Positions 3,799 to 60,312 of a stretch of 64,000 bases of DNA are shown here, one piece after another. This stretch comes from Vicinamibacterales bacterium (lineage in GTDB: Bacteria > Acidobacteriota > Vicinamibacteria > Vicinamibacterales > 2-12-FULL-66-21). Location of the stretch: contig DATJFQ010000098.1 of assembly GCA_035495555.1 (NCBI GenBank), positions 12,325 through 76,324 on the forward strand. The letters are read 5' to 3'. Every line of letters starts with the position of its first letter. The first letter of the stretch is position 1. The position numbers were made by a program, and so were the translations under genes. Under the pieces are notes generated by a model, which saw nothing but the letters and a program-made list of their open reading frames with translations, was not told where the DNA came from and did not search any database.

Positions 3799-3804
<6 letters not shown>
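3367..3804 (+). CDS. 2'-deoxynucleoside 5'-phosphate N-hydrolase-like protein (DNPH1/Rcl, nucleoside 2-deoxyribosyltransferase superfamily)
   Basis: ATG at 3367 overlaps the dut stop (ATGA). MNIYLACTVRGDRD ... YERDIEWL ... VLIADASGSSFGVGFEVGW matches the Rcl signature (YFCGSIRGGRED, EQDL.WL, AEVTQPSLGVGYELG), including the Tyr/Asp/Glu catalytic positions. Confidence 0.75.
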
Positions 3805-3847
<43 letters not shown>

Positions 3848-4070
3848 AGACAGGCGCCGCGGGAAGCGATGGGGGCGAGGACGGGGCGCCCCGGTTCGCG
3901 CGGAGGCGGCTCCTCGTCGACGCGTCTTTCTCGCCGCCGAGCACGAACTGGGTCCGCCTCCGCCGCGAAGCGGCTTCGGCGAGATCGCGCCGGAGCGCAG
4001 CTGGAGCCTCTGACTGCGCGAAGGCGGAGCTGGCCGAGCAGGGGCCCCATCGCCGGCGGTGCTGCCAGCC

Positions 4071-4150
4071 GACGAACGATGTCCGAAGTTCGATGAACGT
4101 TGATCGGCAATCGCCCATCGTCCATCGGTCATCGTCTATCTTCTATCGAT
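4071..4150. repeat. heptamer-based imperfect hairpin (CGATG-type units followed by CATCG-type units)
   Basis: GACGAACGATGTCCGAAGTTCGATGAACGTTGATCGG is followed by CCCATCGTCCATCGGTCATCGTCTATC..ATCGATC. The CGATG/CATCG cores are complementary. The element abuts the RND gene stop. Confidence 0.55.
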
Positions 4151-7100
4151 CACTTCCCCGTTGCTTCCGCTCCCACGCCAGCCAGCGTCGGACGCTTCGC
4201 GGCGCGGCGGTGCGTCAGCCACTCCTGGATCTTCTCCATGTAGACGTAGAAGACCGGCGTGACATACAGCGTGAGCGTCTGCGAGACCATCAGTCCGCCG
4301 ACGACGGCGAGCCCGAGCGGACGCCGCGCTTCACCGCCGGCGCCCCAGCCGAACGCGATCGGCAGCGTGCCCATCAAGGCCGCCATCGTCGTCATCATGA
4401 TGGGGCGGAAGCGGACGAGACACGCTTCGTAAATCGCGTCCGTCGCGCCGACGCCTTCGCGCCGCCGCTCGATCGCGAAGTCGATCATGATGATGCCGTT
4501 CTTCTTCACGATGCCGACGAGCATGATGATGCCGACAAACGCGTAGAGGTCGAGCTCCTGCCGGAAGAGCAGCAGCGTCAGCAGCGCGCCGAACCCCGCG
4601 GACGGCAGACCCGAGAGAATCGTCAGCGGGTGGATGAAGCTCTCGTAGAGGATGCCGAGGACGACGTAGATGACGAAGATGGCGAGGCCGAGAATCCAGC
4701 CAAGGCCCTGCATGGAGTCCTGGAACGCCTGCGCCGTGCCCTGGAAGCTGCCGGCGACCGTGTCGGGCAGGGTCTCGCGCGCGACCTGATTCACGCGTTC
4801 GACGGCGTCGCCGAGCGATACGCCCTGGCGCAGGTTGAACGACAGCGTGACGGCGGGCAACTGGCCGGCGTGGTTGATCGACTGCGGGCCGACCGTCTGA
4901 CGCGTCGTCACCACGGCCGACAGCGGAACGAGCTTGCCGTCAGGCGTCGTCACCGACAGCATCGAGAGCGCCGCAGGATCGCGCTGGTACTTGTCCTCGA
5001 CCTGCATGATGACCTGATACTCGTCGTTGGGCGCGAAGATCTGCGACACCTGCCGCTGGCCGTAGGCCGAGTTGAGCGCGTTCTGTACCTGATCGACCGT
5101 CAACCCGAGCGCCGCGATCTGCTCGCGGTCGAGCAGCACGTCGAGCTGAGGCGTTTTGATCTGCAGGTCCGACGAGATGTCCTCGAGCCCGTCGACCTTG
5201 TGCAGCGCCTGCTCGAAAAGCGGCGCCACCCGATAGAGTTCGTCGGTGTCGGGGTCCTGCAGCGTGTACTGATACGCGCTGTTCGAGCGGATGCCGCCAA
5301 TGCGGATCGCCGGGGGGTTCGAGAGAAACACCCGCACGCCCGGCACGCGGGACAGCTTCGGACGCAGTTCGTCGATGATCTGGTCTGCCGAAAGCGAGCG
5401 TTCCTCGCGCGGTTTCAAATCGATGTTGAGGCGGCCGCCGCCCGCATCGGCGGTGAACGCCGCGACATTGGGATCCTTTTCGAGGATCCCCATGATCTCG
5501 CGCATGTGCGACGCCATCGATTCGAACCCGATGCCCTGGATCGCCTCGATGTTGCCGCTGATCTGGCCGGTGTCGACGCTCGGGATGAACCCTTTCGGCA
5601 CGACCTCGAACAGATACACCGTGCCGGCGAGCATGAGCGCCGAGACCAGCATCGTCGTGCCGCGGAACCGCAGGGTGCCGCGCAGCGTGAACGAATAGAA
5701 ACGCAGCCACGAGTCGAACATCCGCTCGACCGCGTTGTAGAACACCCCGTGCTGCTCGGCGTGCTGCGGCTTCAGGAAGCGGCTGCAGAGCATCGGCGTC
5801 AGCGTGAGGGAGACGAGGCCGGACACGAGAATCGCCGCGGCAATCGTCACCGCGAACTCGTGCATCAACCGGCCGACGATGCCGCCCATGAAGAGGATCG
5901 GGATGAACACCGCGGCGAGGGAGATGGTCATCGACAGAATCGTGAAGGAGATTTCCTTCGATCCATCGAGCGCCGCCTGCATCCGCGTCTTCCCCATGTC
6001 GAGATGGCGCACGATGTTCTCGAGCATGACGATCGCGTCGTCGACGACGAAGCCGACCGACAGCGTGAGCGCCATCAGCGACAGGTTGTCGAGGCTGTAG
6101 TCGAGCGACCACATCACGGCAAAGGTGCCGACGATCGAGAACGGCAGCGCCAGCGACGGGATAATCGTCGCGGAGACGTTCCGCAGGAACAGGAAGATGA
6201 CGAGGATGACCAGGAAGACGGTCAGCAGGAGCGTGAACTTCACGTCCTGCACCGAATCGCGGATCGGAATCGAGCGATCGCTGCGGATCTGGAGCTGCAG
6301 CGATGCGGGCAGCTGCGCCTGCAGTTGCGGCAGCGTGTCCTTGATGGCGTCGACGACTTCGACCGTGTTGGTGCCCGGCTGACGCTGGATTGCGAGGTAG
6401 ACCGTCGGGACGCCGTTGAACCAGCTCAGGTTCCGCGGATTTTCGACGCCGTCGTAGACGTGCGCAATGTCTTCGAGGCGGACAGGGTTGCCGTTGCGAT
6501 ACGCGATGATGATCGGCCGGTACGCTTCGGCGTCCATCAACTGGCCCCGCGCCATCACGACGAAGTTGCGCTCGGGGCCGTACAGCGTGCCCGTCGGGCG
6601 GTTCGAGTTCGCCGCGTTGATCGCCGTGGCGACCTGGTCGACGCCAATCTGCCGTGCGGCGAGCTGGACGGGGTCCAGATCGACACGGACGGCGAACCGC
6701 TTCTCACCGTAGACGTTGACCTGCGCCACACCGGAGACCATCGACAGCCGCTGGACGAGGACGTCCTCCGCGTACTGCGTCACCTGGATCAGCGGCAGCG
6801 TTTTCGAATTCAGGGTCAGGAAGAGAACCGGTGTCGCTGACGGGTCGCTCTTGTTGTACGACGGCGGCGACGGCATGCCGGGCGGAAGCGATCGCGACGT
6901 GCGCGCAATCATCGACTGCACGTCCTGCGCGGCGGCGTCGATGTTCCGGCTCAGATCGAACTGCAGCGTGATGCTCGTGCTGCCCTGCGAGTTGCGGGAA
7001 CTGATCGAGGTGACGCCGGAGATCGTCGAGAACTGCTTCTCGAGCGGCGTGGCCACCGAGTTCGCCATCGTGTCCGGATTGGCGCCGGGCAGGTTCGCGT

Positions 7101-7242
7101 TGACGGTAATGGTCGGGTAGTCGACGGTCGGCAGATCGCTGACCGGCAGCAGCCGATAGCCCATGATCCCGAAGATCAGGATCGTCAGGACGAGGAGGGT
7201 CGTCGCGACGGGCCGTTTGATGAATGGTTCAGCGAAGTTCAT
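4150..7242 (-). CDS. RND efflux transporter permease (HAE1/AcrB-MdtB-like)
   Basis: 1030 aa with the typical N-terminus MNFAEPFIKRPVATTLL..LPVSDLP.VDYPTI.V and 12-TM architecture. Confidence 0.95.
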   Translation of the reverse strand: MNFAEPFIKRPVATTLLVLTILIFGIMGYRLLPVSDLPTVDYPTITVNANLPGANPDTMANSVATPLEKQFSTISGVTSISSRNSQGSTSITLQFDLSRNIDAAAQDVQSMIARTSRSLPPGMPSPPSYNKSDPSATPVLFLTLNSKTLPLIQVTQYAEDVLVQRLSMVSGVAQVNVYGEKRFAVRVDLDPVQLAARQIGVDQVATAINAANSNRPTGTLYGPERNFVVMARGQLMDAEAYRPIIIAYRNGNPVRLEDIAHVYDGVENPRNLSWFNGVPTVYLAIQRQPGTNTVEVVDAIKDTLPQLQAQLPASLQLQIRSDRSIPIRDSVQDVKFTLLLTVFLVILVIFLFLRNVSATIIPSLALPFSIVGTFAVMWSLDYSLDNLSLMALTLSVGFVVDDAIVMLENIVRHLDMGKTRMQAALDGSKEISFTILSMTISLAAVFIPILFMGGIVGRLMHEFAVTIAAAILVSGLVSLTLTPMLCSRFLKPQHAEQHGVFYNAVERMFDSWLRFYSFTLRGTLRFRGTTMLVSALMLAGTVYLFEVVPKGFIPSVDTGQISGNIEAIQGIGFESMASHMREIMGILEKDPNVAAFTADAGGGRLNIDLKPREERSLSADQIIDELRPKLSRVPGVRVFLSNPPAIRIGGIRSNSAYQYTLQDPDTDELYRVAPLFEQALHKVDGLEDISSDLQIKTPQLDVLLDREQIAALGLTVDQVQNALNSAYGQRQVSQIFAPNDEYQVIMQVEDKYQRDPAALSMLSVTTPDGKLVPLSAVVTTRQTVGPQSINHAGQLPAVTLSFNLRQGVSLGDAVERVNQVARETLPDTVAGSFQGTAQAFQDSMQGLGWILGLAIFVIYVVLGILYESFIHPLTILSGLPSAGFGALLTLLLFRQELDLYAFVGIIMLVGIVKKNGIIMIDFAIERRREGVGATDAIYEACLVRFRPIMMTTMAALMGTLPIAFGWGAGGEARRPLGLAVVGGLMVSQTLTLYVTPVFYVYMEKIQEWLTHRRAAKRPTLAGVGAEATGK

Positions 7243-8715: not shown

Positions 8716-11196
8716 ATGTTCAATGTGCTGCAGGACCTGCGTTTCGGCGCGCGCACGCTCCGCAAGACCCCCGGGTTCACCGCGATTGCGGTGGCGATGC
8801 TCGCGCTGGGCATCGGTGCGAACAGCGCGATGTTCACCGTCGTAAACGCGTTGTTGTTCAAATCGCTGGCCGGGCGGGCCGACGAGCTGGTGGGCGTCTT
8901 CACCCACGATCGTACCAAGCCCGACTCCTACCGCGCCTTTTCGTACCCGGAGTATCTCGACATTCGCGACCGCAGCGGCGTGTTCGACGGCCTGATGGCG
9001 CACGACTTCGCGATGGTCGGCTTACCGGAAGGCGACAGCACACGGCAGACGTTCGCCGACGTCGTCTCTTCGAACTTCTTCGACACGCTCGGCGTCCGGC
9101 TCGCCGCCGGCCGTACGTTCACCGCGGCGGAAGAGCGCCCCGGCGCGCGCATTCCGGTTGCGATCGTCGGCAACGATCGCGCCTCGCTCCTCGGCCACAC
9201 GCTCGAGATCAACACCATTGCTTTCACCGTCGTCGGCGTCGTGCCGCGGGGGTTCACCGGGACGATGGCGCTCGTGTCCCCGGAACTATGGCTGCCGATG
9301 GGCATGCACGACGTTGTCGTCAACGACATCTTCAGGCGGAAGAGCACGGGGCTCGAGGACCGAACCAATCGCTCGCTGGTACTCGCGGGCCGGCTGCAAG
9401 ACGGAGTGACGGTCCAGGGCGCCACCGCCAGGCTCGACGCACTGTCCCGGCAACTGGAAGCCGCGTATCCCGCCGACAACAAGAACCAGCAATTGACGAT
9501 TCATCCGCTCTCGCGGATGACCACCAGCACATCTCCGTCCAGCGATTCAGGCCTTGGGATCGCGGGCGGGTTGCTGATGGCGGTGGCCGCGGTCGTGCTC
9601 GTCATCGCGTGCCTGAACATCGCGAACATGCTGCTCGCGCGCGGGATGGCCCGGCGAAAAGAGATGGCGATCCGGCTCGCCGTTGGCAGCGGCCGCGGCC
9701 GGCTCGTGCGGCAGTTGCTGACCGAAGGGCTGCTGCTGGCGATGGTCGGGGCGGCGGGTGGCCTTCTGCTCGCGTTCTGGAGCACCAGGGCGCTCGTCCA
9801 GTCGTTCCAGGCCGTGCTGCCCCTGTCGGTGCAGTTCGACGCCCGGCCCGATGCCCTCGTGACGAGCGTGACGACGGCCGTCGCCGTCGCCGCTACGCTC
9901 CTCTTCGGCCTCGGCCCGGCGTTGAAAATGGCACGAACGGACGTCGTCAGCGACTTGAAGGAAGCCGCGAACGACACGTCGGTGTTCGGCCGCCGGTTCT
10001 CTGCACGAAACATCATGGTCGTCGGCCAGATCGCGCTCTCGCTCATGCTGCTCGCGGCGGGGGGCCTCTTCGCGCGCGGCGCACTGAAGGCGGCGGCTGC
10101 GACGCCGGGGTTCAGCTATGCGCAGGAACTGCTCGTCACCATCGATCCCAGCCTCGTCCAGTACCCCGAATCGCGAGGACGTGCGTCGCATCGCGACGCG
10201 CTGGCGCGCATCCGCGCGATGCCCGGCGTCGTTTCCGCCAGCTCTGCTTCGACGGTACCGTTCGGTGACATGCACGAAGGACGGCCGATCGAACGCGTCG
10301 GCGGCAATTCGACGCAACACGTCGAAAGCGTGTTCAGGATCATCGGCGCCGCCTATTTCCGAACGCTGAACCTGCCGATGCTGCGCGGTCGTGAGTTCAC
10401 CGCGGCCGAAGAGGACTCGCCCACCGCACCCCGCGTCGCCATCGTCGACGAGCGGCTCGCGCGCCGCCTCTTCGGCGACGACGACCCGATTGGCCAATCG
10501 ATCCGATTGCAGCATCGAGACGATCTGCAGGGCGCATACGACAGCGAGCCCATGGCGATCGTGGGCATCTCGGCCCCCATACGCGATGAGCTATTCGATC
10601 GCGAGGCGGGACCGGCGATCTACGTCCCTTCCGGACGGTTCTATCAGGCCATGACGAACGTCCACGTGCGCATCGCGCAGCCGGGAGCGGAAGCGGCAGT
10701 TCTGTCATCAATCCGGCAGGAGCTTCGCTCGCTCGATCCGCGGCTTCCGCTCCTGCAGGCCACCACCACGGCGTCGTTCCACGACAGGAGCATCGAGCTG
10801 TGGGCGGTGCGCGCGGGCGGCCGGCTGTTCCTCGTGTTCGGGCTTTTGGCCCTCTCGCTGGCCATCGTCGGTTTGTATGGCGTGAAGTCCTACGTCGTGT
10901 CGCAACGCACGAAAGAAATCGGGGTACGCATGGCGCTCGGCGCCGATCGCGGCGCCGTGTTGCAGATGATGCTCCAGGAAGGCGCCGTGCTCGCCGGGAT
11001 CGGCATCGCCGTCGGTCTTCCGTTGGCAGCGGCGCTCGGGAAGCTGCTGAGCGCAATGCTCTACGACGTGAAGCCGCTGGACCCGATCGTCTTCGTCTCG
11101 GCGCCGGCCCTGCTCGCGCTCGCTGCGCTCATCGCGACCTGGATTCCCGCGAGGCGAGCCACAAAGGTGAGTCCTTTGGCAGCGCTGCGGTCATGA
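8716..11196 (+). CDS. ADOP-family duplicated FtsX/MacB-type permease
   Basis: 826 aa. The N-terminus MFNVLQDLRFGARTLRKTPGFTAIAVAMLALGIGANSAMF is the hallmark of acidobacterial duplicated orphan permeases. Two FtsX modules are present. Confidence 0.9.
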   Translation: MFNVLQDLRFGARTLRKTPGFTAIAVAMLALGIGANSAMFTVVNALLFKSLAGRADELVGVFTHDRTKPDSYRAFSYPEYLDIRDRSGVFDGLMAHDFAMVGLPEGDSTRQTFADVVSSNFFDTLGVRLAAGRTFTAAEERPGARIPVAIVGNDRASLLGHTLEINTIAFTVVGVVPRGFTGTMALVSPELWLPMGMHDVVVNDIFRRKSTGLEDRTNRSLVLAGRLQDGVTVQGATARLDALSRQLEAAYPADNKNQQLTIHPLSRMTTSTSPSSDSGLGIAGGLLMAVAAVVLVIACLNIANMLLARGMARRKEMAIRLAVGSGRGRLVRQLLTEGLLLAMVGAAGGLLLAFWSTRALVQSFQAVLPLSVQFDARPDALVTSVTTAVAVAATLLFGLGPALKMARTDVVSDLKEAANDTSVFGRRFSARNIMVVGQIALSLMLLAAGGLFARGALKAAAATPGFSYAQELLVTIDPSLVQYPESRGRASHRDALARIRAMPGVVSASSASTVPFGDMHEGRPIERVGGNSTQHVESVFRIIGAAYFRTLNLPMLRGREFTAAEEDSPTAPRVAIVDERLARRLFGDDDPIGQSIRLQHRDDLQGAYDSEPMAIVGISAPIRDELFDREAGPAIYVPSGRFYQAMTNVHVRIAQPGAEAAVLSSIRQELRSLDPRLPLLQATTTASFHDRSIELWAVRAGGRLFLVFGLLALSLAIVGLYGVKSYVVSQRTKEIGVRMALGADRGAVLQMMLQEGAVLAGIGIAVGLPLAAALGKLLSAMLYDVKPLDPIVFVSAPALLALAALIATWIPARRATKVSPLAALRS

Positions 11197-11201
11197 CGGC
11201 A

Positions 11202-11312
11202 GTCAACTACGCAATTTCACAACTACCAACTACACAAGGCGCGATCGCTTGGAAGTTGTCGCCTTAGTTGGTAGTTGCCGTGAGTAGTTGGTAGTTGCGA
11301 AGTTATGTAGTT
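11202..11312. repeat. inverted heptamer-repeat hairpin (CAACTAC/CCAACTA arm versus TAGTTGG/TAGTTGC arm)
   Basis: Left arm GTCAACTACGCAATTTCACAACTACCAACTACACAA. Right arm ..TTAGTTGGTAGTTGCCGTGAGTAGTTGGTAGTTGCGAAGTT.. Lies between convergent gene ends and overlaps the S9 peptidase stop. Confidence 0.8.
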
Positions 11313-14163: not shown

Positions 14164-14194
14164 GGCGGCATCATAGACGAGGTGTGCCGCGGAT

Positions 14195-14273
14195 CAACTC
14201 CCAACGCCCAACGCCCAATATGAATTGCGAATTGAATTGGAAGTTGGGAATTGGGAATTGGGAATTGGGAATT
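14195..14273. repeat. inverted heptamer-repeat hairpin, TTGGGAR family (archetype)
   Basis: Left arm CAACTCC CAACGCC CAACGCC CAATAT. Right arm ..TTGGAAG(TTGGGAA)4TT. Located between the ABC-operon 3' end and the S9 peptidase start. Confidence 0.9.
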
Positions 14274-15666
14274 ATTTGTTTCGGAAAGTCTCAGCACTCC
14301 CCGGTGCAGCGAAGCGGTACTGCTTGTTTCCAACGCGCGCCTCGACTTCGTATCGAGCCCGCATCTGCAGAAAGTCGAGCCCGTCGCCCACGCGGCCTCG
14401 CGTCATCGGCGTCATCGTCGTCTGGTCCACAGAGAGCGTCAGCGTCGCCTGAATCGATTCACCCGAGGCGCGGACGACGATGCGTGCGGGCCGATCCGTG
14501 CCGGGCGCATTCGTCTCGTCGATCGTCGCATCCGTGGAAAAGGCGAGCGGCCCCGAGGGCCCGAGCACGGCGAGAAACCCCGGCACGTGCTGCGGGTCGG
14601 CAGCATCGGCCGGAGGGCGCACGCGGCCATACACGAAGGAAATGCCCTCGTGCTGCACCTGTCCCCACTGCCAGGACACGCCCTCCCAGAAGCCCCAGTT
14701 GTGATCGTGATATCCAGTGCCGCCGGAGAAGTCGACGGTTTGGGTGCCCACGGTCAGCGACCCGTCGAGGGTTCCGGAGGTGACCGGCACCGTGTAGCCC
14801 GACAGCCACCCGCCCGCGCCTTCGAGCACGAACGGCGGGACGGACCGATCGGGATCGGCGTGCACGACGATGTCTCCCGTCGCGCGCAAGCGACCCGACT
14901 CCGATGGCAGATCGAGGTGAATCCGATAGCCGACGCCCGTCAGTCGGACCGTCGTCGTTTCGACGCTCAAATCAGGCGCGTCCTCGATCAAAGCGTCGGG
15001 ATCGATCTCGCGACGGGCGGAATAGGCGGACATCACACCGTTGCGCTCCAATTGCAGGCGCGCGACGAGGGATCGGTGGCCGCTCGCGTCGACGGGTCCC
15101 GCGAGAAATGTCAGGTAGAAACGCCCGGCGCGTGCGATGCCGTTGAAGTACAGCCACTCAGCCCAGGAACCCGCGCGCGACGGCACATCGGGGACGGGGT
15201 GAAAGCGATCGATGCCGCGGAGCACCGACGACGCGTCGATGTCGAGCCACCGGCGATCTCCCGCCGAGTCCACCCAGGCCGGGATGCTGGCAATCTCGTG
15301 ACTCCCGAGCGCGCGATCGGAGGATGGGATGCTGCCGTGCATCGCCACCGGGATGCTGCGGCCGTCGTGGCGAAGGTACACGGTGTCGCGGATCGACGGG
15401 GCCAATGCCCGCACGGCCGTGCCGAACGGACCATTCGTGCGCAGTTGATACAGCACGAACCGGCCGTTCGCGATGCGGCCGGCGGCCGATCCGATGCGGA
15501 CGTCTCCACCTCCGACGAGTGCGGGCGCGCGGGCCTGGTCGAGGATGACGTCGCCGACGCCGAGGAGCACCGCCATCACGCCGACCCCGAGGCCGAAACC
15601 GATCGCCAGGACGGCGCTGCGCACCGGCCGCGCGGCAATCGAACGAAACGCGAGCTTCAACAGCAC
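14272..15666 (-). CDS. membrane-anchored AttH/CrtC-like (COG5621) lipocalin-fold protein
   Basis: GTG at 15666 (or TTG at 15660) overlaps the ATPase stop. The N-terminus LKLAFRSIAARPVRSAVLAIGFGLGVGVMAVLL looks like FtsX TM1. It is followed by EWLYFNG and YHDHNWGFW motifs, as in AttH/hydroxyneurosporene-synthase-like domains. Confidence 0.7.
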   Translation of the reverse strand: MLLKLAFRSIAARPVRSAVLAIGFGLGVGVMAVLLGVGDVILDQARAPALVGGGDVRIGSAAGRIANGRFVLYQLRTNGPFGTAVRALAPSIRDTVYLRHDGRSIPVAMHGSIPSSDRALGSHEIASIPAWVDSAGDRRWLDIDASSVLRGIDRFHPVPDVPSRAGSWAEWLYFNGIARAGRFYLTFLAGPVDASGHRSLVARLQLERNGVMSAYSARREIDPDALIEDAPDLSVETTTVRLTGVGYRIHLDLPSESGRLRATGDIVVHADPDRSVPPFVLEGAGGWLSGYTVPVTSGTLDGSLTVGTQTVDFSGGTGYHDHNWGFWEGVSWQWGQVQHEGISFVYGRVRPPADAADPQHVPGFLAVLGPSGPLAFSTDATIDETNAPGTDRPARIVVRASGESIQATLTLSVDQTTMTPMTRGRVGDGLDFLQMRARYEVEARVGNKQYRFAAPGSAETFRNK

Positions 15667-16352
15667 GGGCGTGTCGTCTCCTCGACGATCTCGCCGTCGC
15701 GCATGCGCACGCTGCGCGAGGCGCGTGCCGCGACCTCCGGATCGTGCGTGACGACGACGAGCGCGGTGCCATCGGCATTCAAGCGATCGAACAGCGACAC
15801 GATCTGGGCGCCCGTCGCCTGGTCCAGCTCTCCGGTCGGCTCGTCGGCGAGCAGCAGACCCGGACGATTGGCGAGCGCGCGCGCAATCGCCACACGCTGC
15901 ATCTCGCCGCCCGAGAGCTCCGCCGGGCGATGCGAGGCTCGCGCCGACAGGCCGACGTACTCGAGCAGCTCGCGCGTCCGCTGCCGCCGCTCTGCCCGGC
16001 TCACGCCGGCTTCGGCCTGCGGCAGCTCCACGTTCTCCCACGCGCTGAGCATCGGCAGCAGAAAGAATCGCTGGAACACGAAGCCGATTCGCCGGAGCCG
16101 CAGTGCGCTGCGCGCGGAGTCGCTGAGCGTACTCACATCGATGTCGTCCACCAGCACCGAGCCTGCGGTGGGCACATCGATGCAGCCGAGGAGGTGCAGC
16201 AGCGTGCTCTTGCCGCAGCCCGACGGACCGACCACGCTGACGTATTCACCGGGCTGGACGGACAGCGAAACGCCCCGCAGCGCGTGCACAGCACCGGCGG
16301 GCATCACGAACGTCCGCGACACGGCGTTGGCGGCCACGACCGGAACGGTCAT
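15657..16352 (-). CDS. ABC transporter ATP-binding protein (MacB/LolD-type)
   Basis: 231 aa with Walker A GPSGCGKST, signature LSGGEMQRVAIARAL and Walker B LLLADEPTG. Its ATG overlaps the upstream stop (ATGA). The rest of the 621-aa ORF is spurious. Confidence 0.95.
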   Translation of the reverse strand: MTVPVVAANAVSRTFVMPAGAVHALRGVSLSVQPGEYVSVVGPSGCGKSTLLHLLGCIDVPTAGSVLVDDIDVSTLSDSARSALRLRRIGFVFQRFFLLPMLSAWENVELPQAEAGVSRAERRQRTRELLEYVGLSARASHRPAELSGGEMQRVAIARALANRPGLLLADEPTGELDQATGAQIVSLFDRLNADGTALVVVTHDPEVAARASRSVRMRDGEIVEETTRPCC

Positions 16353-17545
16353 GAGACCACCTCGCGCCGCAGCGTTGCCGCGATCGGAAGCGTTGCCACC
16401 AGCCGCATCGGATAGACGGCCGCGAGCACGGCCCCGATGACGAGCAGCGCCGCGTGAACTTCGAGCGCGTGCAGGGTGAAGACGAAGAAGCGCGCGTCGG
16501 CCGGAATTCCGGGCATCGAACGGAGAATGGCGTCCAGCCATCGCGACAGCAGCCCTCCGATTGGCACCGCTGCGATCCCTCCCAGGCCGATGAACAGCGC
16601 CGACTCGCAGAGCACACCTGCCATCACGCGGGCGCGAGACAGCCCCAGCGCGCGGAGCGCGGCGATTTCGCCAAGCTGTTGATTCACCGACACCGTGAGC
16701 AGAACGGTGATGAGCAGCAGTCCGAAAAACAGCGTCACCGTCGTCAACACGCTCGAGAGCTGCCGGAAGTACGAGAACTCGACCCGGCTGAATCGCTCCA
16801 CGATCTGCTCGTTCGTGAGCGCGTGGAGCGCGGGAAAGGCGGCCCGAATGGCCGCTGCCGCGGCATCTGGTCCGCCGGCGGCGGGATTCGACTGGACGAG
16901 CAGCATGTCGGCGAGGTCGCCGCGCTCGCCGCAGAGCGCCGCGACGGCCTGAGACGACGTCGCCGCGGTGAGCGCGTCGGCGGCATCGTTCTGAAACTCT
17001 GCGACGCCGGCGACCGTCGCGTCCAGCGGAAGAGGCCGTGACGCGTCCCCGCAGCGCCCGTTCAGGACGACCGGCGACCCAACCGTCAGGTGAAATGTGC
17101 GAGCGAAATTGCGGTTGATCACGAGCGGTGCGGGCGACGCCTGGGCATTTGGTGGTGCCCCTTCGAGGAGCGTCCACGGTACCGGTGCGCCGAGGTCCAC
17201 GCCGGCAACCGCCAGATGACGAGTCGAGGGATGATCGGCGACATCGGCTGACGCCACACGGACCCGCTGTACAGCAGCGATCGATGGCTCCCGTCCGAGT
17301 TCGGTCAGCTTCGCGGATACGTGGTCGATGGGTGGCCCGGCGATGACGGCGCTCTCCGACGCGATCACACGCACGTCGAACCCGGAGCGATCGAGCCGCT
17401 CTCTGAACGACACGAGCAGTCCGTTCGACAGCAGCAGCATGTCGAACAGAAGTGCGCCGATGGCTGTCACGCCAATTACACCGAGCAGCATGCGCCCAGG
17501 CTCGCGGCGGAGGCGCAGCCACGCAAACGCGAGCGCGCGCCTCAT
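16349..17545 (-). CDS. ABC transporter permease, FtsX family
   Basis: MRRALAFAWLRLRREPGRMLLGVIGVTAIGA (TM1), a periplasmic domain, then a C-terminal 3-TM FtsX module. Its ATG overlaps the upstream stop. Confidence 0.85.
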   Translation of the reverse strand: MRRALAFAWLRLRREPGRMLLGVIGVTAIGALLFDMLLLSNGLLVSFRERLDRSGFDVRVIASESAVIAGPPIDHVSAKLTELGREPSIAAVQRVRVASADVADHPSTRHLAVAGVDLGAPVPWTLLEGAPPNAQASPAPLVINRNFARTFHLTVGSPVVLNGRCGDASRPLPLDATVAGVAEFQNDAADALTAATSSQAVAALCGERGDLADMLLVQSNPAAGGPDAAAAAIRAAFPALHALTNEQIVERFSRVEFSYFRQLSSVLTTVTLFFGLLLITVLLTVSVNQQLGEIAALRALGLSRARVMAGVLCESALFIGLGGIAAVPIGGLLSRWLDAILRSMPGIPADARFFVFTLHALEVHAALLVIGAVLAAVYPMRLVATLPIAATLRREVVS

Positions 17546-18384
17546 CGACCCACCGTCAGCAGGGCGCGGCGGCGCAAGATGGTCCATCCCGCGATCGCGC
17601 TGGCCGCCAGGCCCACCGGGACCGCAAGCGCCACACACCGAAGCGCAATCGCGGGCGTAACCCGGACGAAGACGAGCGCGGTGTCATACCGCCATTGAAA
17701 AAACCGGTTGAAGACGGGTTCCGCCGCCCGCGCGAACAGAACCCCGAACGCCGCACCCGCGACCGCAATCAGCGCGCCTTCGACGAGCACCTGCGCGATG
17801 AGCCGCTGCTTCGTCAGGCCAATCAATCGCAGCGTCGCGACCGTCTCGCGCCGCTCGTCGACGAGCATCACCATCAGCGCGAGGAGGAATGCGCCGCTGC
17901 CGAAGACCGTGACCATCGCAATCGCGAGGTGAAATCGATCGAGGACGGCGAACGTGGACGTCCGCTCGTCGGGCGCGGCCGTCGACTTCGCGGTCAATCC
18001 GGGCAGACGGCGCTCTACATCGGATGCAAACCCCGCGGCGTCCTCGCGGTCGCGCAGTTCGACGTTGATGCTCGTGAGCGAAGACGACGGGAGGCGGTCC
18101 TCGAGCGCGGCCGCGTCCGGCAGATGCACGCGCACTTCGAGCCGCTCCTGGGCAAACCGCATGGGATCCGGTGTCGGCTCGTAAACGCCGACGATGCGGA
18201 ACGGGCGCGCAGCCGTGCCGGCAGCATCGGACGACAGCTCCACGGTTTGACCGACGGCGAGGTGCTCACGCTCCAGCAGTTGACGCGAGACGAGCACATC
18301 CGCAGGCGCCGGAGCCGCCGCGAGGGCGGTCCACGTCAGCAGCACGACGGCGAGGAAGGAGGCGGTCCGACGCATCCTTCTCAT
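17542..18384 (-). CDS. ABC transporter permease, short FtsX family
   Basis: N-terminal hydrophobic helix, a short periplasmic domain (VLVSRQLLEREHLAVGQTVEL) and an FtsX 3-TM module (..LRLIGLTKQRLI..). Start is uncertain: ATG 18384, ATG 18375 or GTG 18402. Confidence 0.8.
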   Translation of the reverse strand: MRRMRRTASFLAVVLLTWTALAAAPAPADVLVSRQLLEREHLAVGQTVELSSDAAGTAARPFRIVGVYEPTPDPMRFAQERLEVRVHLPDAAALEDRLPSSSLTSINVELRDREDAAGFASDVERRLPGLTAKSTAAPDERTSTFAVLDRFHLAIAMVTVFGSGAFLLALMVMLVDERRETVATLRLIGLTKQRLIAQVLVEGALIAVAGAAFGVLFARAAEPVFNRFFQWRYDTALVFVRVTPAIALRCVALAVPVGLAASAIAGWTILRRRALLTVGR

Positions 18385-18445
18385 CGTATCTGGAGCGCGC
18401 ACTCCAGTTGCGCGATCGGCTGTCGATCACCACAATACGGACACC

Positions 18446-19630
18446 ATGAAGCTGCTGCTGTTCGGGGTCGTGCTCGTCGCGATCGCCCAATCGACGCCAT
18501 CGCCGCGGCCGCGCGCGAGAGATCTCGGCATCGCGCCCGGAACGTTTCCTCCGGGGCCGCTCAACGCGATCACCGACGTCAGCGGCGTCACCGTGGGCCA
18601 GACGACCGTCACCGAAGGCGACACCGTCCGCACCGGCGTCACCGCGATCGTGCCCCACGGCGGCAATCTCTTTCAGGAGAAGGTGCCCGGCGCCGTCTTC
18701 GTGGGGAACGCCTTCGGCAAGCTGGCGGGCTCGACGCAGGTGAACGAGCTCGGCACGATCGAAACCCCCGTCGTCCTCACCAACACGCTGTCGGTCGGCA
18801 CGGCGGTCGACGCGGTCGTCCGCTGGACGCTGGCGCAGCCGGGGAACGAACACGTGCGCTCGGTCAACGCCCTCGTCGGCGAAACGAACGACGGCACGCT
18901 CAACGACATCCGCGGTCTTCACGTCACCGGCGACCACGTGCGGGCCGCGATCACCGGTGCGAAGAGCGGCCCCGTGGACGAAGGCGCCGTCGGGGCGGGC
19001 ACCGGCACGGTGGCGTTCGGCTGGAAGGGCGGCATCGGCACGTCGTCGCGCCTCGTGCGCGTCGGTTCCGACACGTGGACCGTCGGTGTGCTCGTGCAGA
19101 GCAATTACGGCGGACGCCTGGTCATCAACGGTGTTCCCATCTGGCGCGAGTTGAACCCGAACCAGAACGAGAACCCGAACCCGAACGAGAACCCGAACCC
19201 CGAACCGCGAACCCGAAACAGAACCTCCGCACCGCCGAACCCCCGCACCCCCGAACCGCGCGTGTCACCCGACGGTTCCTGCATGATTGTGGTGGCGACC
19301 GACGCGCCGCTGGACGCACGGAACCTGCAGCGGCTCGCCGCGCGTGCCGTGTTCGCGCTGGCGCGCACCGGATCGACCTATTCCAACGGCAGCGGCGACT
19401 TCGCCATCGCGTTCTCGACCGCGCCGTCGCTCCGCGTAACGAGCGCGCGCGGTCCGCAGACGCGGACCGTCCTGCCGACCGACGACGTGTCGCCGTTGTT
19501 CGAGGGCGTCATGGATGCGACCGAAGAAGCCGTGGACAACTCCCTTCTGCAAGCGACCGACGTCACCGCAAACGGGCGGACCGTTCGGGCGATCCCGATT
19601 GACCGGCTGAAAGCGCTGCTGCAGCGATGA
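18446..19630 (+). CDS. DmpA/BapA-like P1 (S58) family aminopeptidase, self-processing Ntn type
   Basis: Signal peptide, NAITDV.GV.VG, and the predicted autoprocessing site DG|SCMIVVATDAPL. Confidence 0.85.
   Translation: MKLLLFGVVLVAIAQSTPSPRPRARDLGIAPGTFPPGPLNAITDVSGVTVGQTTVTEGDTVRTGVTAIVPHGGNLFQEKVPGAVFVGNAFGKLAGSTQVNELGTIETPVVLTNTLSVGTAVDAVVRWTLAQPGNEHVRSVNALVGETNDGTLNDIRGLHVTGDHVRAAITGAKSGPVDEGAVGAGTGTVAFGWKGGIGTSSRLVRVGSDTWTVGVLVQSNYGGRLVINGVPIWRELNPNQNENPNPNENPNPEPRTRNRTSAPPNPRTPEPRVSPDGSCMIVVATDAPLDARNLQRLAARAVFALARTGSTYSNGSGDFAIAFSTAPSLRVTSARGPQTRTVLPTDDVSPLFEGVMDATEEAVDNSLLQATDVTANGRTVRAIPIDRLKALLQR
19153..19260. repeat. in-frame 6/7-nt tandem repeat tract (GAACCC/GAACGA/GAACCA ...) inside the DmpA-like CDS
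   Basis: Eight clean hexamers degenerate into heptamer-like CGAACCG/CCGCACC units. The tract encodes NPNQNENPNPNENPNPEPRTRNRTSAPPNPRTPEPR. Confidence 0.85.
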
Positions 19631-19663: not shown

Positions 19664-19705
19664 CGTCGTCCATCGTCCATCGTCCATCGTCCATCGTCCA
19701 TCGTT
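19664..19705. repeat. single-orientation tandem heptamer array CGTCGTC(CATCGTC)4CATCGTT
   Basis: Six contiguous 7-nt units immediately upstream of the GGAGG-ATG of the VPS10 gene. Confidence 0.9.
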
Positions 19706-24292: not shown

Positions 24293-24373
24293 CGCAACGC
24301 ATGCCGCAGTCCGCACGCCGCACCCCGCAGCCCGCACGCCGCAGGCCCGCACGCCCCACACCGCACGCCCACG
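24293..24373. repeat. single-orientation GC-rich heptamer array (CCGCACG/CCGCAGN units)
   Basis: The CGCA core recurs at 24305, 12, 19, 26, 33, 40, 48 and 62 (period 7). Located in the leader of VPS10 paralog 2. Confidence 0.8.
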
Positions 24374-29736: not shown

Positions 29737-29761
29737 GCCGCGGATTGTAATGCGCTCGGGG

Positions 29762-29846
29762 GAAATTGCAGATTTCGGGTTGCAGATTGCGGATTGATTG
29801 CTAATTTCCTAATCAATCTCGAATCTGCAATCTACAATCTGCACTC
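29762..29846. repeat. inverted heptamer hairpin (TGCAGAT/TGCGGAT arm versus ATCTGCA/ATCTACA arm)
   Basis: GAAATTGCAGATTTCGGGTTGCAGATTGCGGATTGATTG...CAATCTCGAATCTGCAATCTACAATCTGCA. Lies in the divergent promoter region. Confidence 0.8.
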
Positions 29847-29855
29847 GCCACAGCG

Positions 29856-32800: not shown

Positions 32801-32948
32801 CCGCCTGCGCGTCCCTTATTTCGAGCGCTTCCCGCGACCGGAACCGGCGGTCATCGCGCGTGGCGACGGCGCGGCCGATGCCATGTCGTTCCAATTCATC
32901 AGCGCGTTGAACACGAGGTTGAATTCGCCGTGGTTCTGCCAGCGGTAG
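29856..32948 (+). CDS. M48-family zinc metallopeptidase fused to extra TM segments and a large C-terminal domain
   Basis: HEIAHL zinc motif with a downstream E..ESDRRA, plus HPSLARRI. Many hydrophobic helices. The last ~130 nt overlap the convergent M14 gene. Confidence 0.75.
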   Translation: MQYQPIAIVAVLVPALVPAVWWGVETHRLLRRPDDPLLPERLLAARRRAAVVLMFSLGIIAGVKTIALWWAVPFALVSRAAAGFRLRRRLYEETWGFWTMVSFATRLIVGVYGFHLTLLALPFIVSAAGRHVWLASGFAAAVLLAWAHWYSPLLRVLLRTAPVGDETLVRAFSDLVARAGVAAPRFESVDMRGGSLTNAIALAALNGSSVVFTSPLLERLQTDEIVAIAAHEIAHLEYYSPRRLWQYRLVQWSLILIGAFAFRFWPASLPAWEQAFVWFALIVAMLGWRARRRQQNETESDRRAVGLTGTPDALARGLTKLNTFARLPRRWDAAFERRATHPSLARRIRDIYAAAGVTPVTRDIAEVFVSEATATRVTFGPDELRWARDGAQHHLRYGALSELRVLARRGDTALLVAADRFGHRWEMPLDAADIGRAQSVLDTVDVHLVAHEPPPTISGAARWAAFLAALLALTSGQFGYALVALLTSVAASTRLLAATAVASAAAGVIAIRDGRVERGIGFLAIAAIFGLFTILYRRGVSNPLDRRALAMMTVATALALLLILDNGIGAYRLHQAARSVPDAAILLLATAAAIRVTARRRATRYAVLLLALAGLGLAFAGSSAYVNGFVNDPMLVRAPALEAVHITAAPLATMAVPFDPSDLTLSPDGTRVMLWRDEEEVTDQPGNDWTVQIGTVGGNLSRTKADDAVFLPGGEVLAVAFDAEGAELRKSVAGAAPSWRTRATGIVAGRLTVDGGGHHWTIVGWDGRQQPVKGTGTVGTTQIDVARWSAVPGIRYTNVASTGGIATVLEQHYRRSPVSWTLARWGLQLPYESHTRVWRLDGHGRTLVADSELQIACAAAVAPDAFTCAAYDGTRTRISTLAITSGRILPLAIVRGRFTPFVAHAAAGWLTGWRDRSPVAIRLDPLTAYDVPVNQGEYVRSIAGAGDRLAAIESNGDHSRIAVYALPTSAAGATHARAGRPARLRVPYFERFPRPEPAVIARGDGAADAMSFQFISALNTRLNSPWFCQR

Positions 32949-35884: not shown

Positions 35885-35903
35885 TGCCAGTCTCCTTCGC
35901 GTG

Positions 35904-35991
35904 CTAGTCCCCTGGAAACGTGATGCATCACACAAGTCCCGGGCGCCGCGCTCCGGGACTTGTGCAACGCGTCACGTTTCCAGGGGACTAG
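35904..35991. repeat. two-tier near-perfect palindrome in a divergent intergenic region
   Basis: Outer 20-bp arms CTAGTCCCCTGGAAACGTGA (35904-23) and TCACGTTTCCAGGGGACTAG (35972-91). Inner 12-bp arms CACAAGTCCCGG (35931-42) and CCGGGACTTGTG (35953-64). Confidence 0.9.
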
Positions 35992-35998
35992 AGCGCGC

Positions 35999-36865
35999 AT
36001 GATACCTGATTGGGCCGCCTGGCGCGTGCGGTTCGACGACTTCACCGCACGAAAGACGCGCGCAGCCGCGAGCGCGGCCCTGTTCCCGCTGGTCACGACC
36101 CTCGAAAACCCCGACGATCGATTGCAACCTGTCGGGAGCGAGTGGTCGCGGCGTCTCTTCAACGGCGCGTTCTACGTCGCGCACCCGCCGGACGCGCAGC
36201 GGCCGGCATGTTCGCTCGTCTTCGTGCAATCCGCCGATGGGAACACGGGCGCCGACGAGCCGGGGACGCTGGGCGGCGGCGAGACGGACAAGCACCTCAT
36301 TTACGAAGGACTTTCGCGGGTTGCCGCCGATGCCGTGCTGGCCGGCGCAGGTACGGTGCGCGGCACCGACGTCGTATTCTCAGTCTGGCATCCCGAGATC
36401 GTCGCGCTGCGCGCCTCGCTGGGGCTACCGCGCCATCCCGTCCAGATCATCGCCACGAATCGCGGGCTGGACTTCGACGGGCACCTCATGTTCAACGTGC
36501 CGGACCTGCGGGTCGTGCTCCTGACCGGGCCGTCTGTGCCCTCCACGATGCACGATCGGATTCGCGAACGGCCGTGGATTCTCGAGGTGCCGCTGCCTGC
36601 AGCCGGACTGCGCGATGCCTTCGAACGGCTGTACGCGATGGGTATCGGCCGCGTGTCGTGCGTCGGCGGCCGCACGCTCGCTCGTGAATTGCTGGCGGGC
36701 CGGCTCGTGGACGACGTCTATCTGACGACGGCGCCACAGCCTGGCGGACAGCCGGACACCGCGATCGCGCCGTGGCCGTGGCGCGGTCGCGTGGTGGTTC
36801 GAAAACACGGCACCGGGCCGGACGCCGGGGTGGTGTTCGAACAGGTGGTGCCGCACACGCCATGA
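35999..36865 (+). CDS. RibD C-terminal-domain/dihydrofolate-reductase-like reductase
   Basis: ATG at 35999. Pattern ..VFVQSADG......G.LGGGETDKHLIYEGLSRVAADAVLAGAGTVR and C-terminal ..VGGRTLARELLAGRLVDDVYLT.AP, typical of the RibD_C fold. Confidence 0.65.
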   Translation: MIPDWAAWRVRFDDFTARKTRAAASAALFPLVTTLENPDDRLQPVGSEWSRRLFNGAFYVAHPPDAQRPACSLVFVQSADGNTGADEPGTLGGGETDKHLIYEGLSRVAADAVLAGAGTVRGTDVVFSVWHPEIVALRASLGLPRHPVQIIATNRGLDFDGHLMFNVPDLRVVLLTGPSVPSTMHDRIRERPWILEVPLPAAGLRDAFERLYAMGIGRVSCVGGRTLARELLAGRLVDDVYLTTAPQPGGQPDTAIAPWPWRGRVVVRKHGTGPDAGVVFEQVVPHTP

Positions 36866-41743: not shown

Positions 41744-42199
41744 ATGACTCGTTCCGCGTTCGTTGCCGCCGCGGCTGTCTGCATATCCGCGCTGGCTTGT
41801 CCCTCTTTTGCACAGGCGCCGAAACCTGCGACGCCGACCACGACCGCGCCGGCGACTCCGGCCAAGTGGGTGAAGCCGGTCAAAGGTACCGCCTTCATCG
41901 AAGTCATTCGTGGCCAGACCAAACGCGTCGGCAACGACATGGTGACCGCGCTCAAGGTCAAGAACACGTCGGACGGCGCGATCGCGCTGTTCCGCGTCGA
42001 CGAAATCTGGTACGACCACAAGCTGAAACAGGTAACGGGTGACAGCTTCACCAGTCACAAGCCGCTCAATCCCGGCGAGGTCCTGGACGTGACGCTGAAG
42101 TCCCCGGTCAAGCCGGATCTGTATCAGAGCCAGTACGCGTTCAGCCACGCGAACGGCAAGGTCGACGCGAAGCAGGTCAAGAAGTTCGAAGGCAAATAG
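41744..42199 (+). CDS. secreted hypothetical protein
   Basis: GGGAGG precedes the ATG. Signal peptide MTRSAFVAAAAVCISALACPSFAQA, a Pro/Thr linker and a ~100-aa beta-rich domain. Confidence 0.6.
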   Translation: MTRSAFVAAAAVCISALACPSFAQAPKPATPTTTAPATPAKWVKPVKGTAFIEVIRGQTKRVGNDMVTALKVKNTSDGAIALFRVDEIWYDHKLKQVTGDSFTSHKPLNPGEVLDVTLKSPVKPDLYQSQYAFSHANGKVDAKQVKKFEGK

Positions 42200-42282
42200 C
42201 CACTCCAACTCCCAATTCCCAACTCCCAATTCGCAATTAGATTCAGCAATCTTGGGAGTTGGGAGTTGGGAATTGGGAGTTC
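42200..42282. repeat. inverted heptamer hairpin, TTGGGAR family
   Basis: CCACTCCAACTCCCAATTCCCAACTCCCAATTCGCAATT ... AATCTTGGGAGTTGGGAGTTGGGAATTGGGAGTTC. Between convergent genes; the right arm encodes the C-terminal tail of the minus-strand gene. Confidence 0.9.
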
Positions 42283-48200: not shown

Positions 48201-48349
48201 CAACTCCCAACACCCAATTCCCAATTCCCAAGGGTTCGAACTCCCAAGTCCCGGTCCCGGGCTTGGGAGTTTTTGTATCCGCTGGAAATGGGCGGTTAGG
48301 ATTTATTCGGTTCGGGAGCTGGGAATTGGGAGTTGGGAGTTGGGAGTTG
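48201..48349. repeat. nested TTGGGAR-family element: outer inverted arms enclosing a terminator-like hairpin
   Basis: Outer arms CAACTCCCAACACCCAATTCCCAATTCCCAA (48201-31) and TTCGGGAGCTGGGAATTGGGAGTTGGGAGTTGGGAGTTG (48311-49). Confidence 0.85.
48239..48275 (+). terminator. rho-independent terminator candidate for htrA
   Basis: 10-bp perfect stem AACTCCCAAG/CTTGGGAGTT with inner CCCG/CGGG pairing, followed by TTTTTG. Confidence 0.6.
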
Positions 48350-50769: not shown

Positions 50770-50839
50770 GCACCGAGCACCAAGCACCCCGCACCGAGCA
50801 CGAAGCACCGCGCACGAAGCACCGCGCGCGAAGCGCGCC
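50770..50839. repeat. single-orientation tandem heptamer array (GCACCGA GCACCAA GCACCCC GCACCGA GCACGAA GCACCGC GCACGAA GCACCGC GCGCGAA GCGCGCC)
   Basis: Ten contiguous 7-nt units read directly between the two genes. Confidence 0.9.
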
Positions 50840-57405: not shown

Positions 57406-57410
57406 TACTG

Positions 57411-57467: not shown

Positions 57468-57483
57468 CAGTTTGGAGTTCTGT

Positions 57484-60303: not shown

Positions 60304-60312
60304 CCTTCGCGT

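Follow-up and report, generated by a model that had tools for sequence, protein, structure and literature searches.

The 64,000-nucleotide stretch of a Vicinamibacterales genome analyzed here (assembly GCA_035495555.1, contig DATJFQ010000098.1, positions 12,325 to 76,324; hereafter the window, GC content 65.8%) carries tandem arrays of seven-nucleotide units that are mostly set as facing inverted pairs between genes. We found the period-7 arrays and the pairing of their arms to exceed chance expectation by a wide margin and the trait to be shared by related genomes. On balance, and at somewhat better than even odds, we regard the arrays as heptamer simple sequence repeats (SSRs) of the same kind as the short tandemly repeated repetitive (STRR) elements of cyanobacteria and the (GGGANTN)n arrays of Xanthomonas: driven by slippage, mostly forming inverted pairs, individually dispensable and filtered by selection, with any effect as RNA stem-loops being secondary. 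Among the long simple repeats of bacteria, heptamers show the strongest over-representation; the window adds a third unrelated and little-studied phylum (soil Acidobacteriota, Vicinamibacterales) to Xanthomonas and the filamentous cyanobacteria.

Tandem Repeats Finder (TRF) reported about 22 period-7 arrays spread over 15 loci of the window (Table 1). Exact period-7 arrays of at least 2.5 copies numbered 11, against a mean of 0.28 and a maximum of 2 in 100 order-3 Markov simulations; those of at least three copies numbered six, against 0.00 expected from such simulations. No other period was conspicuous in the window: periods 6, 8 and 9 gave three, one and zero exact arrays, respectively, and among the 33 TRF arrays scoring at least 40, period 7 accounted for 15 and period 14 for four more. 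A CRISPR-like reading was rejected, as the repeats are not separated by unique spacers.

The loci comprise several unit families of one architecture. The CCCAAYT/ARTTGGG family is found at seven of the 15 loci, with inverted pairs at six of the seven, and the CATCGNN/NNCGATG family at 3799, 4103, 19666 and 54438–54566, where the 3799–3845 array is the inverted partner of that at 4103–4152, approximately 260 nt away. The remaining families are CAACTAC/GTAGTTG at 11204, GATTGCA/TGCAATC at 29765 and GCACNNN at 24304 and 50770. In the archetype copy at 14195, the C-rich arm reads CAACTCC CAACGCC CAACGCC CAAT and the opposite arm, within 14222–14273, consists of degenerate units followed by (TTGGGAA)4. 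A preliminary description of the window, made from the letters alone, had listed the CCCAAYT-family copies, and all of them hold the repeats described: inverted pairs at 42205, 48201, 61747 and 62088, a degenerate copy at 57411 and a single G-arm at 60313. It had also named the CATCG units as one of the types, rightly, while missing the in-frame hairpin that this family forms inside rimO (54438–54566). Its division of the unit into a five-nucleotide core and two variable nucleotides stands for the core; the rest of the CCCAAYT unit is a Y followed mostly by T, leaving essentially a single variable Y/R position, and the G-arm units read GGGAATT or GGGAGTT throughout. The copy numbers of the G-arms, a small sample, were 4.3, 4.3, 5.1, 4.9, 5.4 and 4.3 in TRF.

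The copies have the repeated unit alone in common, whereas loops, flanks and lengths all differ, and the loops resemble decayed units. Among the copies in the window and at pattern-matched loci, we found no target duplication, common loop or common flank, and searches against Rfam at the gathering threshold and for tRNAs gave no match. In agreement with the preliminary description, no transposase, REP-associated tyrosine transposase (RAYT) or integrase was seen in the 64 kb among the open reading frames (ORFs) scanned or those with Pfam hits, some small ORFs being unscanned.

Two facing arrays would let either strand, as DNA or as RNA, fold into a long and often periodically mismatched hairpin. 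We compared RNA minimum free energies (MFEs) with those of 200 dinucleotide shuffles and expressed the difference as z. Eight inverted-pair loci outfolded their shuffles, with z from −3.4 to −10.1; the degenerate copy between nusA and infB reached −2.0, a weak value. The four single arms (19666, 24304, 50770 and 60313) gained nothing over their shuffles (z +0.2 to +1.5). The arms are 23 to 36 nt long and 79 to 93% complementary, far more so than in shuffled sequences, and the loops span 11 to 89 nt. The helix is broken every 7 nt at 14195 and 62088, as had been proposed for the family as a whole, but is almost continuous at 42205 and 48201. Chance is ruled out as the source of both the period-7 excess and the arm pairing. 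With G-quadruplex (G4) energies enabled in ViennaRNA, the lone G-arm at 60304–60351 is predicted to fold as a G4 (−12.1 vs. −3.9 kcal/mol), and the hairpin prevails in every paired copy (−32 to −53 kcal/mol). The single arms at 19666, 24304 and 50770 have a C/A-rich, G-poor sense strand, lie just 5′ of start codons and may be unstructured leaders.

Table 1. Heptamer-array loci of the window, with the results of the fold test (region folded where it differs from the locus; z against shuffles)
Feature	Coordinates	Strand	Context and remarks	Fold test
(CGATGTT)6.7 array, CATCGNN family on − strand	3799–3845	−	Spacer downstream of acrB-like gene	
(CATCGNC)n array	4103–4152	+	Abuts stop of acrB-like gene (4150–7242, −)	
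CAACTAC/GTAGTTG hairpin	11204–11297	.	Between convergent MacB/FtsX and peptidase S9 genes	11198–11302: −4.6 and −5.2
Archetype CCCAAYT/ARTTGGG hairpin	14195–14273	.	C-arm 14195–14218, G-arm 14222–14273; between stop of 464-aa gene and start of peptidase S9 gene, both on − strand	14190–14280: −3.4 (+ strand), −5.9 (− strand)
Single-arm (TCGTCCA)5.6, CATCGNN family	19666–19704	+	13 nt upstream of start of sortilin/BNR gene; unstructured	+0.2
Single-arm (CCGCACN)n	24304–24370	+	Probably 5′ leader of sortilin/BNR gene, signal-peptide Met at 24409	+1.3
GATTGCA/TGCAATC hairpin	29765–29843	.	Fills 119-nt spacer of divergent alpha-galactosidase and peptidase M48 genes	29760–29848: −7.6 and −5.8
CCCAAYT/ARTTGGG hairpin	42205–42281	.	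Between convergent genes; arms 93% complementary	42198–42288: −10.1 and −8.1
CCCAAYT/ARTTGGG hairpin	48201–48349	.	Between stop of htrA-like gene (48186) and TTG start of 283-aa gene (48347); 30-nt arms, long loop	−8.5
Single-arm (GCACNNA)n	50770–50834	+	Spacer between NTP-transferase and APH genes	+1.05
In-frame CGATG/CATCGNN hairpin	54438–54566	.	Inside rimO	−3.75
Degenerate CCCRGYT/ARTTGGG hairpin	57411–57467	.	nusA–infB spacer; weak	57405–57475: −2.0
Single G-arm (TTGGGAR)4.9	60313–60346	+	Fills infB–rbfA spacer	+1.5
CCCAAYT/ARTTGGG hairpin	61747–61830	.	Fills DHH–truB spacer; truB TTG start (61821) in last G-arm unit	61742–61834: −4.1
In-frame CCCAAYT/ARTTGGG hairpin	62088–62175	.	Inside truB	62082–62182: −6.9

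Gene context, polarity and in-frame copies

We placed genes by codon-position GC, Pfam matches and gene calls on near-identical public contigs, those around the archetype being taken from contig L211. Intergenic DNA makes up 4.5% of the window yet holds 72% of the array bases; arrays form 21% of the intergenic DNA, and 11 of the 36 spacers hold one. Thirteen of the 15 loci are intergenic (p ~5e-16) and the remaining two lie in frame inside truB and rimO. The hairpins of inverted units that had been described at gene boundaries are a real population. The arrays typically fill a spacer to within approximately 35 nt of both genes, and several abut or overlap a gene end. In the CCCAAYT family, six of the seven loci are intergenic or overlap gene ends, ranging from an overlap of a few bases to a distance of 31 nt from the flanking ORFs. 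Hairpins start anywhere from an overlap of one or two bases with the upstream stop codon to 14 nt beyond it, and end between the inside of the downstream start codon and 31 nt before it. The transcriptional context is convergent at 11204 and 42205, divergent at 29765 and co-directional at 14195 (− strand), 19666, 48201, 50770, 57411, 60313 and 61747, with several copies lying within the conserved rimP-nusA-infB-rbfA-DHH-truB-rpsO-pnp operon. The arrays affect gene calling, since some start codons and C-termini fall inside them: the G-arm at 42205 overlaps the 3′ end of orf302 (42243–43151, −) and encodes its last ~10 codons, giving the C-terminus ...NSQFPTPNSQDC*. The same peptide motif recurs in the insert of TruB.

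On the coding strand, the CCCAAYT family shows a fixed order of stop codon, C-arm, G-arm and start codon. The G-arm bears a GGGAG resembling the Shine–Dalgarno (SD) sequence and the C-arm the complementary, anti-SD-like CUCCC. The TTG start codons of truB and of the 283-aa gene fall in the last G-arm unit, and the GTG start of rbfA lies 7 nt after the GGGAG of the single G-arm. Single G-arms faced a downstream start in four to five cases, against zero to one in the C-orientation; the count is small and the automated ORF test is noisy from spurious long ORFs in high-GC DNA, so that we treat the difference as a weak hint, combined with manual reading. At other acidobacterial loci, single G-arms are likewise found just upstream of start codons. 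Such a polarity could modulate or couple translation.

The preliminary description implied that the hairpins act as terminators, and this does not hold as a general role. Like rho-independent terminators, they place a stable stem-loop just after a stop codon, but no U-tract follows the heptamer hairpins, the contexts differ and include divergent, intra-operon and intragenic positions, and ordinary terminators are found elsewhere in the window, such as the canonical one after rimO at 55631–55658. A scan for terminator-like sites gave no enrichment, with 13 sites against 12.1 expected. The only terminator-like piece within an element is an inner hairpin at 48236–48269 followed by TTTTTG, nested in the loop of the 48201–48349 copy; this nested structure (48236–48275) uses the family core (CTCCCAAG...CTTGGGAG and then TTTTTG).

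The copy placed inside truB by the preliminary description is truly in frame and lies in a loop of TruB, where it replaces the loop tip between TATYDAE and LDEVLDDFRG. It encodes NSQLPTPNSQ...NWELGIGS, and residues 79–118 have a predicted local distance difference test score (pLDDT) below 50 in AlphaFold, so the loop is predicted to be disordered. The rimO copy forms an insert of approximately 34 aa between the N-terminal and radical-SAM domains, as judged against the Thermotoga maritima RimO (4jc0), which lacks it. The two copies show that such repeats can add disordered peptide loops to conserved enzymes. GC content at third codon positions (GC3) is 0.48–0.52 in the inserts and 0.77–0.80 in the host genes (0.52 vs. 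0.77 for truB); the inserted sequence therefore reflects shaping of the DNA rather than codon usage.

In species with a TruB identity of 66 to 82%, the truB insert is a hairpin of CCCAAYT units, loop and ARTTGGG units. Its lengths are 81, 81, 81, 84, 102, 105 and 114 nt, with steps of 21 nt, or three units and seven codons, the sole unit change that preserves the reading frame. The insert of relative L207 has a C-arm expanded to approximately 12 units and a decayed G-arm. Among more distant relatives, the loop is unexpanded in L126, L128 and L129. At the same loop, L124 has a non-repeat perfect 22-bp stem (6256–6316; GAAAGGGGGACACTCACAGTTC...) and L125 a palindrome of 11-nt period (GGGGTCAGACC, 4945–5001), while FRLKAE-type repeats occur there in L127 and in several proteins of the alignment (A1). 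In sliding 80-nt MFE windows along truB of 25 relatives, the AT-richer heptamer stems were not the lowest in absolute MFE; the gene has a GC content of 66% and the stem exceeds the window size.

Variation among strains and relatives

Twelve JGI/ENA contigs that are 99.4 to 99.99% identical to parts of the window bear the same arrays, and we rejected an assembly artefact on the strength of these independent metagenome contigs. The length change that we did observe concerns the archetype C-arm, where L211, 99.87% identical to the window over 7.7 kb with three other differing positions, has one extra CAACGCC unit and thus a 7-nt indel: (CAACGCC)2 in the window (14200–14218) and three copies in L211 (2100–2130). 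We saw array length change nowhere else at the 12 array loci that 11 further near-identical contigs cover, and the 42205 hairpin is invariant in five of the near-identical contigs. Unit gain and loss therefore occurs, yet the arrays are not hypervariable. The behavior departs from that of phase-variable contingency SSRs: the 14 array loci represented in 12 near-identical contigs show one 7-nt indel in all, the intragenic copies are kept in frame across species and the neighboring genes are housekeeping genes.

The two arms of a hairpin can be homogenized separately: at 14195, (AACGCCC)n stands opposite (AATTCCC)n, and at 62088 the variable positions are all C in one arm and all T in the other. 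The arms at 42205 mirror each other in a mixed CT/TT pattern. The DHH–truB spacer holds a clean hairpin in the window and in L209, a decayed one in L206, L207, L208 and L210, and only 10 nt in L205; other unit families occupy it in L124 and L128. In the same operon, the truB–rpsO spacer and the pnp leader are highly conserved and array-free. The one-unit strain indel, the 21-nt steps in truB and the decay or absence of hairpins at orthologous spacers together point to slippage-driven, dispensable repeats.

The truB–rpsO spacer (62766–62855, with a promoter-like TTGACT box and the rpsO leader) and the pnp leader (63195–63255, GAAAGCTGGCGCAGCTCATTTCTGAAAGAAGTCAC) are almost invariant in L204–L210, at TruB identities of 65 to 82%, and the spacers next to them turn over. 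They are likely the autoregulatory leaders of S15 and PNPase; neither matched Rfam at the gathering threshold.

The closest named TruB homologues come from metagenome-assembled genomes (MAGs) of Vicinamibacterales. For a wider comparison, we used TruB-anchored metagenome loci, 80 among the matches listed, and added seven closer relatives by exact-protein look-up. All six of the listed loci with a TruB identity of at least 49% contain exact period-7 arrays, 13 in 42.9 kb, against 10 in 521 kb for the 74 more distant loci. With the seven relatives added, the frequency is 29 arrays per 100 kb, ~11 times that of the distant loci (14 per 521 kb; p ~2e-20), although the close-relative loci are orthologous regions and their counts are not fully independent. 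Period-7 enrichment thus extends well beyond the window; with the arms also more complementary than shuffles, neither of the two outcomes named in the preliminary description as refuting it was obtained. Inverted arrangement sets the lineage apart as well: 20 of 40 arrays in the Vicinamibacterales-like loci stand in adjacent inverted pairs, vs. 36 of 414 (9%) in sampled cyanobacterial loci (p = 5e-10). The units of the relatives differ from those of the window and include ATGCTGA/TCAGCAT, CCAGCTA/AGCTGGA, AGTTAAA/TAACTTT, GATTGCG/CGCAATC and GGGACCG/GGTCCCC, so that, as the preliminary description had proposed, period and inverted design persist while unit sequence changes. The relatives also hold inverted arrays of periods 8, 9, 11 and 13; seven is dominant, not exclusive. 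The period-7 inverted-array trait is lineage-wide in the Vicinamibacterales-like relatives.

Individual arrays illustrate this range. In L204, the pnp–cupredoxin spacer has grown to 824 nt (3829–4652) with inverted (GCAAAGATC)n and (GATCTTTGC)n arrays of periods 9 and 13, and L206 has inverted period-8 arrays AGGAGATC and CTCCTGAA at 9389–9453. Compound arrays that change unit partway were seen in L009, L050 and L069; in Xanthomonas sp. Leaf148, for instance, (CCGACTT)n gives way to (TTCCCRA)n, and in an acidobacterial MAG (CAACTCC)4 gives way to (GAGYCCC)n. Such a switch within an array fits a unit mutation followed by expansion of the mutated unit.

A scan of 185,579 species genomes for exact (TTGGGAR)3 gave at least 118 stretches. 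Among the matches listed, approximately three quarters come from filamentous cyanobacteria and 13 stretches from Acidobacteriota/Vicinamibacterales, and the remainder include Xanthomonas (L009), Gemmatimonadaceae, Chloroflexota, Bacteroidota and Verrucomicrobiota; these taxon counts are indicative only.

Related repeat systems and competing explanations

The preliminary description took the system to be undescribed, and on this point it was mistaken. Arrays of (GGGANTN)n in Xanthomonas number ~186 per genome, are 89 to 93% intergenic with a mode of four units, show no association with mobile elements and have no established function; 70 to 75 pairs in each genome are inverted and have the potential to form stem-loops or cruciforms (Rehm et al. 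2015, PLoS One, PMC4692102). The Xanthomonas unit is GGGAATC, and related arrays in Nostoc have the unit GGGGAYT (PMC4692102). Written as GGGARTT, the TTGGGAR unit fits the (GGGANTN)n consensus in all G-arms of the window. The likeness extends to intergenic positions within tens of bases of ORF ends, arms of approximately four units, frequent inverted pairs, the lack of a mobile-element link and lengths and sequences that differ between related species at the same gene pairs. In Xanthomonas and Nostoc, however, arrays that follow a stop codon closely have their G-rich strand as the coding strand, and those that closely precede a start codon have it as the non-coding strand (PMC4692102); the polarity here is the opposite, with the C-arm after the stop and the G-arm before or containing the start. 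The window further differs in its phylum, in having several non-G-rich unit families of the same design and in the in-frame hairpins of truB and rimO.

The second precedent is cyanobacterial. Heptamer STRR hairpins between co-transcribed genes, such as hupS–hupL, have been called "not unusual," and roles in transcript stability or translational coupling have been proposed for them (PMC2670836). The arrays of the window resemble STRRs in being heptamers, in having several families per genome, in their intergenic positions and in forming hairpins between co-transcribed genes (nusA–infB and DHH–truB), and the cyanobacterial loci that we retrieved also show inverted heptamer pairs of many unit types. 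STRRs reportedly occur inside the RNase P RNA gene as well. In contrast to the window, the TTGGGAR arrays of cyanobacteria are single-armed, and the host here is non-cyanobacterial, with a GC content of 66% and very short spacers.

Heptamers are the leading class of long SSRs in prokaryotes, and polymerase slippage is the favored cause, according to the summaries of Mrazek et al. (2007) given in PMC4679880 and PMC4692102. The TAACTGA arrays of Beggiatoaceae include only one inverted set in the BOGUAY genome, and CspB binds heptamer repeats (PMC4679880). The window shares with these the dominance of period 7 and the intergenic positions near start codons; the TAACTGA arrays are mostly direct, whereas inverted pairs are the rule here. 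We found no paper linking Acidobacteria or Vicinamibacter to heptanucleotide or tandem repeats in a literature search that was incomplete, and this is absence of evidence only. The kind of element itself is known; what is new is its presence in an acidobacterium, its occurrence mainly as hairpins, the reversal of its polarity and its insertion in frame in truB and rimO. As the same unit class occurs with more pairing and opposite polarity, a comparison can ask whether the unit is favored intrinsically, by G4 formation or slippage, and whether the arrangement is selected, as by SD sequestration.

If the arrays are slippage-driven SSRs, a replication or repair property of the lineage would make 7-nt slippage frequent, strand-switching in replication would create the inverted partner, and purifying selection would remove harmful arrays, leaving those in spacers and disordered protein loops; once present, the elements would act as RNA stem-loops in polycistronic transcripts. 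Several observations weigh against this account. Adjacent pairs of the same family are inverted in 24 cases and direct in two, which pure slippage does not explain, nor does slippage that starts at random seeds account for the dominance of a few families in the genome (CCCAAYT at seven of the 15 loci, CATCGNN at four to five). Pure slippage also leaves without account the C-arm-first order of the CCCAAYT family in 13 of 14 acidobacterial hairpins (p = 0.002). In L206, GAATGCC occupies two loci that hold TTGGGAR in relatives, a hint of genome-wide concerted change, and the truB loop repeatedly holds hairpins of unrelated sequence, which could reflect selection for structure and not merely a permissive site. 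Finally, a genome with so little spacer DNA should be expected to shed junk, yet the arrays make up a fifth of its spacer DNA.

The main rival, although not probable, is that the hairpins are selected RNA-level regulators. In this scheme, the CUCCC of the C-arm would sequester the GGGAG and at times the TTG start, coupling translation of the downstream gene to a ribosome that finishes the upstream gene and melts the stem, or else the stems would act as a barrier to 3′ exonucleases or as cleavage sites for RNase III. The way in which the hairpins hug the upstream stop and the downstream start, the starts of truB and the 283-aa gene within a G-arm, the rbfA start 7 nt after GGGAG, the C-arm-first order, the excess of single G-arms facing starts, the recurrent structure at the truB loop and the similar role proposed for cyanobacterial STRR hairpins (PMC2670836) are all consistent with it. 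Sequestration of an SD sequence is meaningless, however, for the convergent (11204, 42205), divergent (29765) and intragenic hairpins, and the other unit families have neither an SD-like core nor a consistent polarity. The orthologous DHH–truB hairpin has decayed in four relatives and is absent in one, bases at the variable positions often fail to pair between the arms, the polarity of this unit class is reversed in Xanthomonas and Nostoc, and the single arms counted were few and scored by a noisy test.

We think it unlikely that the hairpins form a maintained layer of gene organization in Vicinamibacterales, and not passive debris of slippage, in which inter-locus conversion or an enzyme acting on stems of 7-nt period renews the preferred units of the genome at permissive sites, the order of stop, C-arm, G-arm and start couples or gates translation across operons, and the truB and rimO inserts belong to the same system. 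A genome-wide process that writes units would explain the dominant families, the 24:2 excess of inverted pairs and the parallel replacement in L206.

Elements acting at the DNA level, with G-arms of at least four GGG tracts forming G4s and C-arms i-motifs, or with the 7-bp periodic arrays binding a nucleoid or cold-shock-type protein, and with a role in replication, transcription or chromosome organization, appear improbable. G-arms of 4.3 to 5.4 units match the four-unit preference and in-vitro G4 formation of (GGGANTN)n (PMC4692102), the lone G-arm is itself a predicted G4, the TTGGGAR unit recurs in unrelated phyla and CspB is a known binder of heptamer repeats (PMC4679880). Where a C-arm is present, however, the hairpin far outcompetes the G4, and most other families (CATCGNN, CAACTAC and GATTGCA in the window; ATGCTGA, AGTTAAA and others in relatives) are unable to form one; the analysis yielded no candidate binding protein.

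The hairpins also recall repetitive extragenic palindromes (REPs), bacterial interspersed mosaic elements (BIMEs) and miniature inverted-repeat transposable elements (MITEs), which are likewise short palindromes outside genes, near gene ends, and fold in mRNA. Rickettsia palindromic elements (RPEs) enter protein-coding genes in frame and contribute surface peptides, and the truB and rimO inserts resemble such insertions. REPs and BIMEs have a conserved palindrome of 20 to 40 nt with a fixed head (GTAG/CGTC), whereas the copies here have only the 7-mer in common; MITEs have terminal inverted repeats (TIRs) around a conserved core and target-site duplications (TSDs), whereas here there are neither TSDs nor TIRs distinct from the array, and unit number is polymorphic inside an arm. 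We rejected the MITE/REP reading for the lack of a common core, flanks or TSDs, and it is most improbable that the hairpins are non-autonomous mobile palindromes (REP/BIME-, MITE- or RPE-like) spread by a transposase encoded elsewhere: the few families per genome, the strong inverted preference, the differing family content of genomes and the RPE-like in-frame insertions speak for it, but arms gain or lose one unit at a time, some arrays are single-armed or compound, the ORFs of the 64 kb that were scanned or have Pfam hits include no transposase, RAYT or integrase gene, and Rehm et al. (PMC4692102) saw no mobile-element association.

Other features of the window

A palindrome that is not made of repeats lies at 35890–36005. 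It is near-perfect, 116 nt long with 53-nt arms that are 83% complementary (MFE −85.6 kcal/mol, z −10.8), and covers the divergent start codons of a peptidase M14 gene (32816–35935, −) and an ORF at 35960–36865 (+); it may be a symmetric operator or leader. At 16349–18402 (−), the overlapping ORFs 16349–17638 and 17542–18402 both match MacB_PCD and FtsX and may be either a split or frameshifted gene for a MacB-type permease or two adjacent paralogues. The 3′ part of a peptidase S58 gene (18446–19630) contains a hexamer/18-mer repeat at 19153–19257, (GAACCC)n followed by (GAACCCCC)n, which is a coding low-complexity tract.

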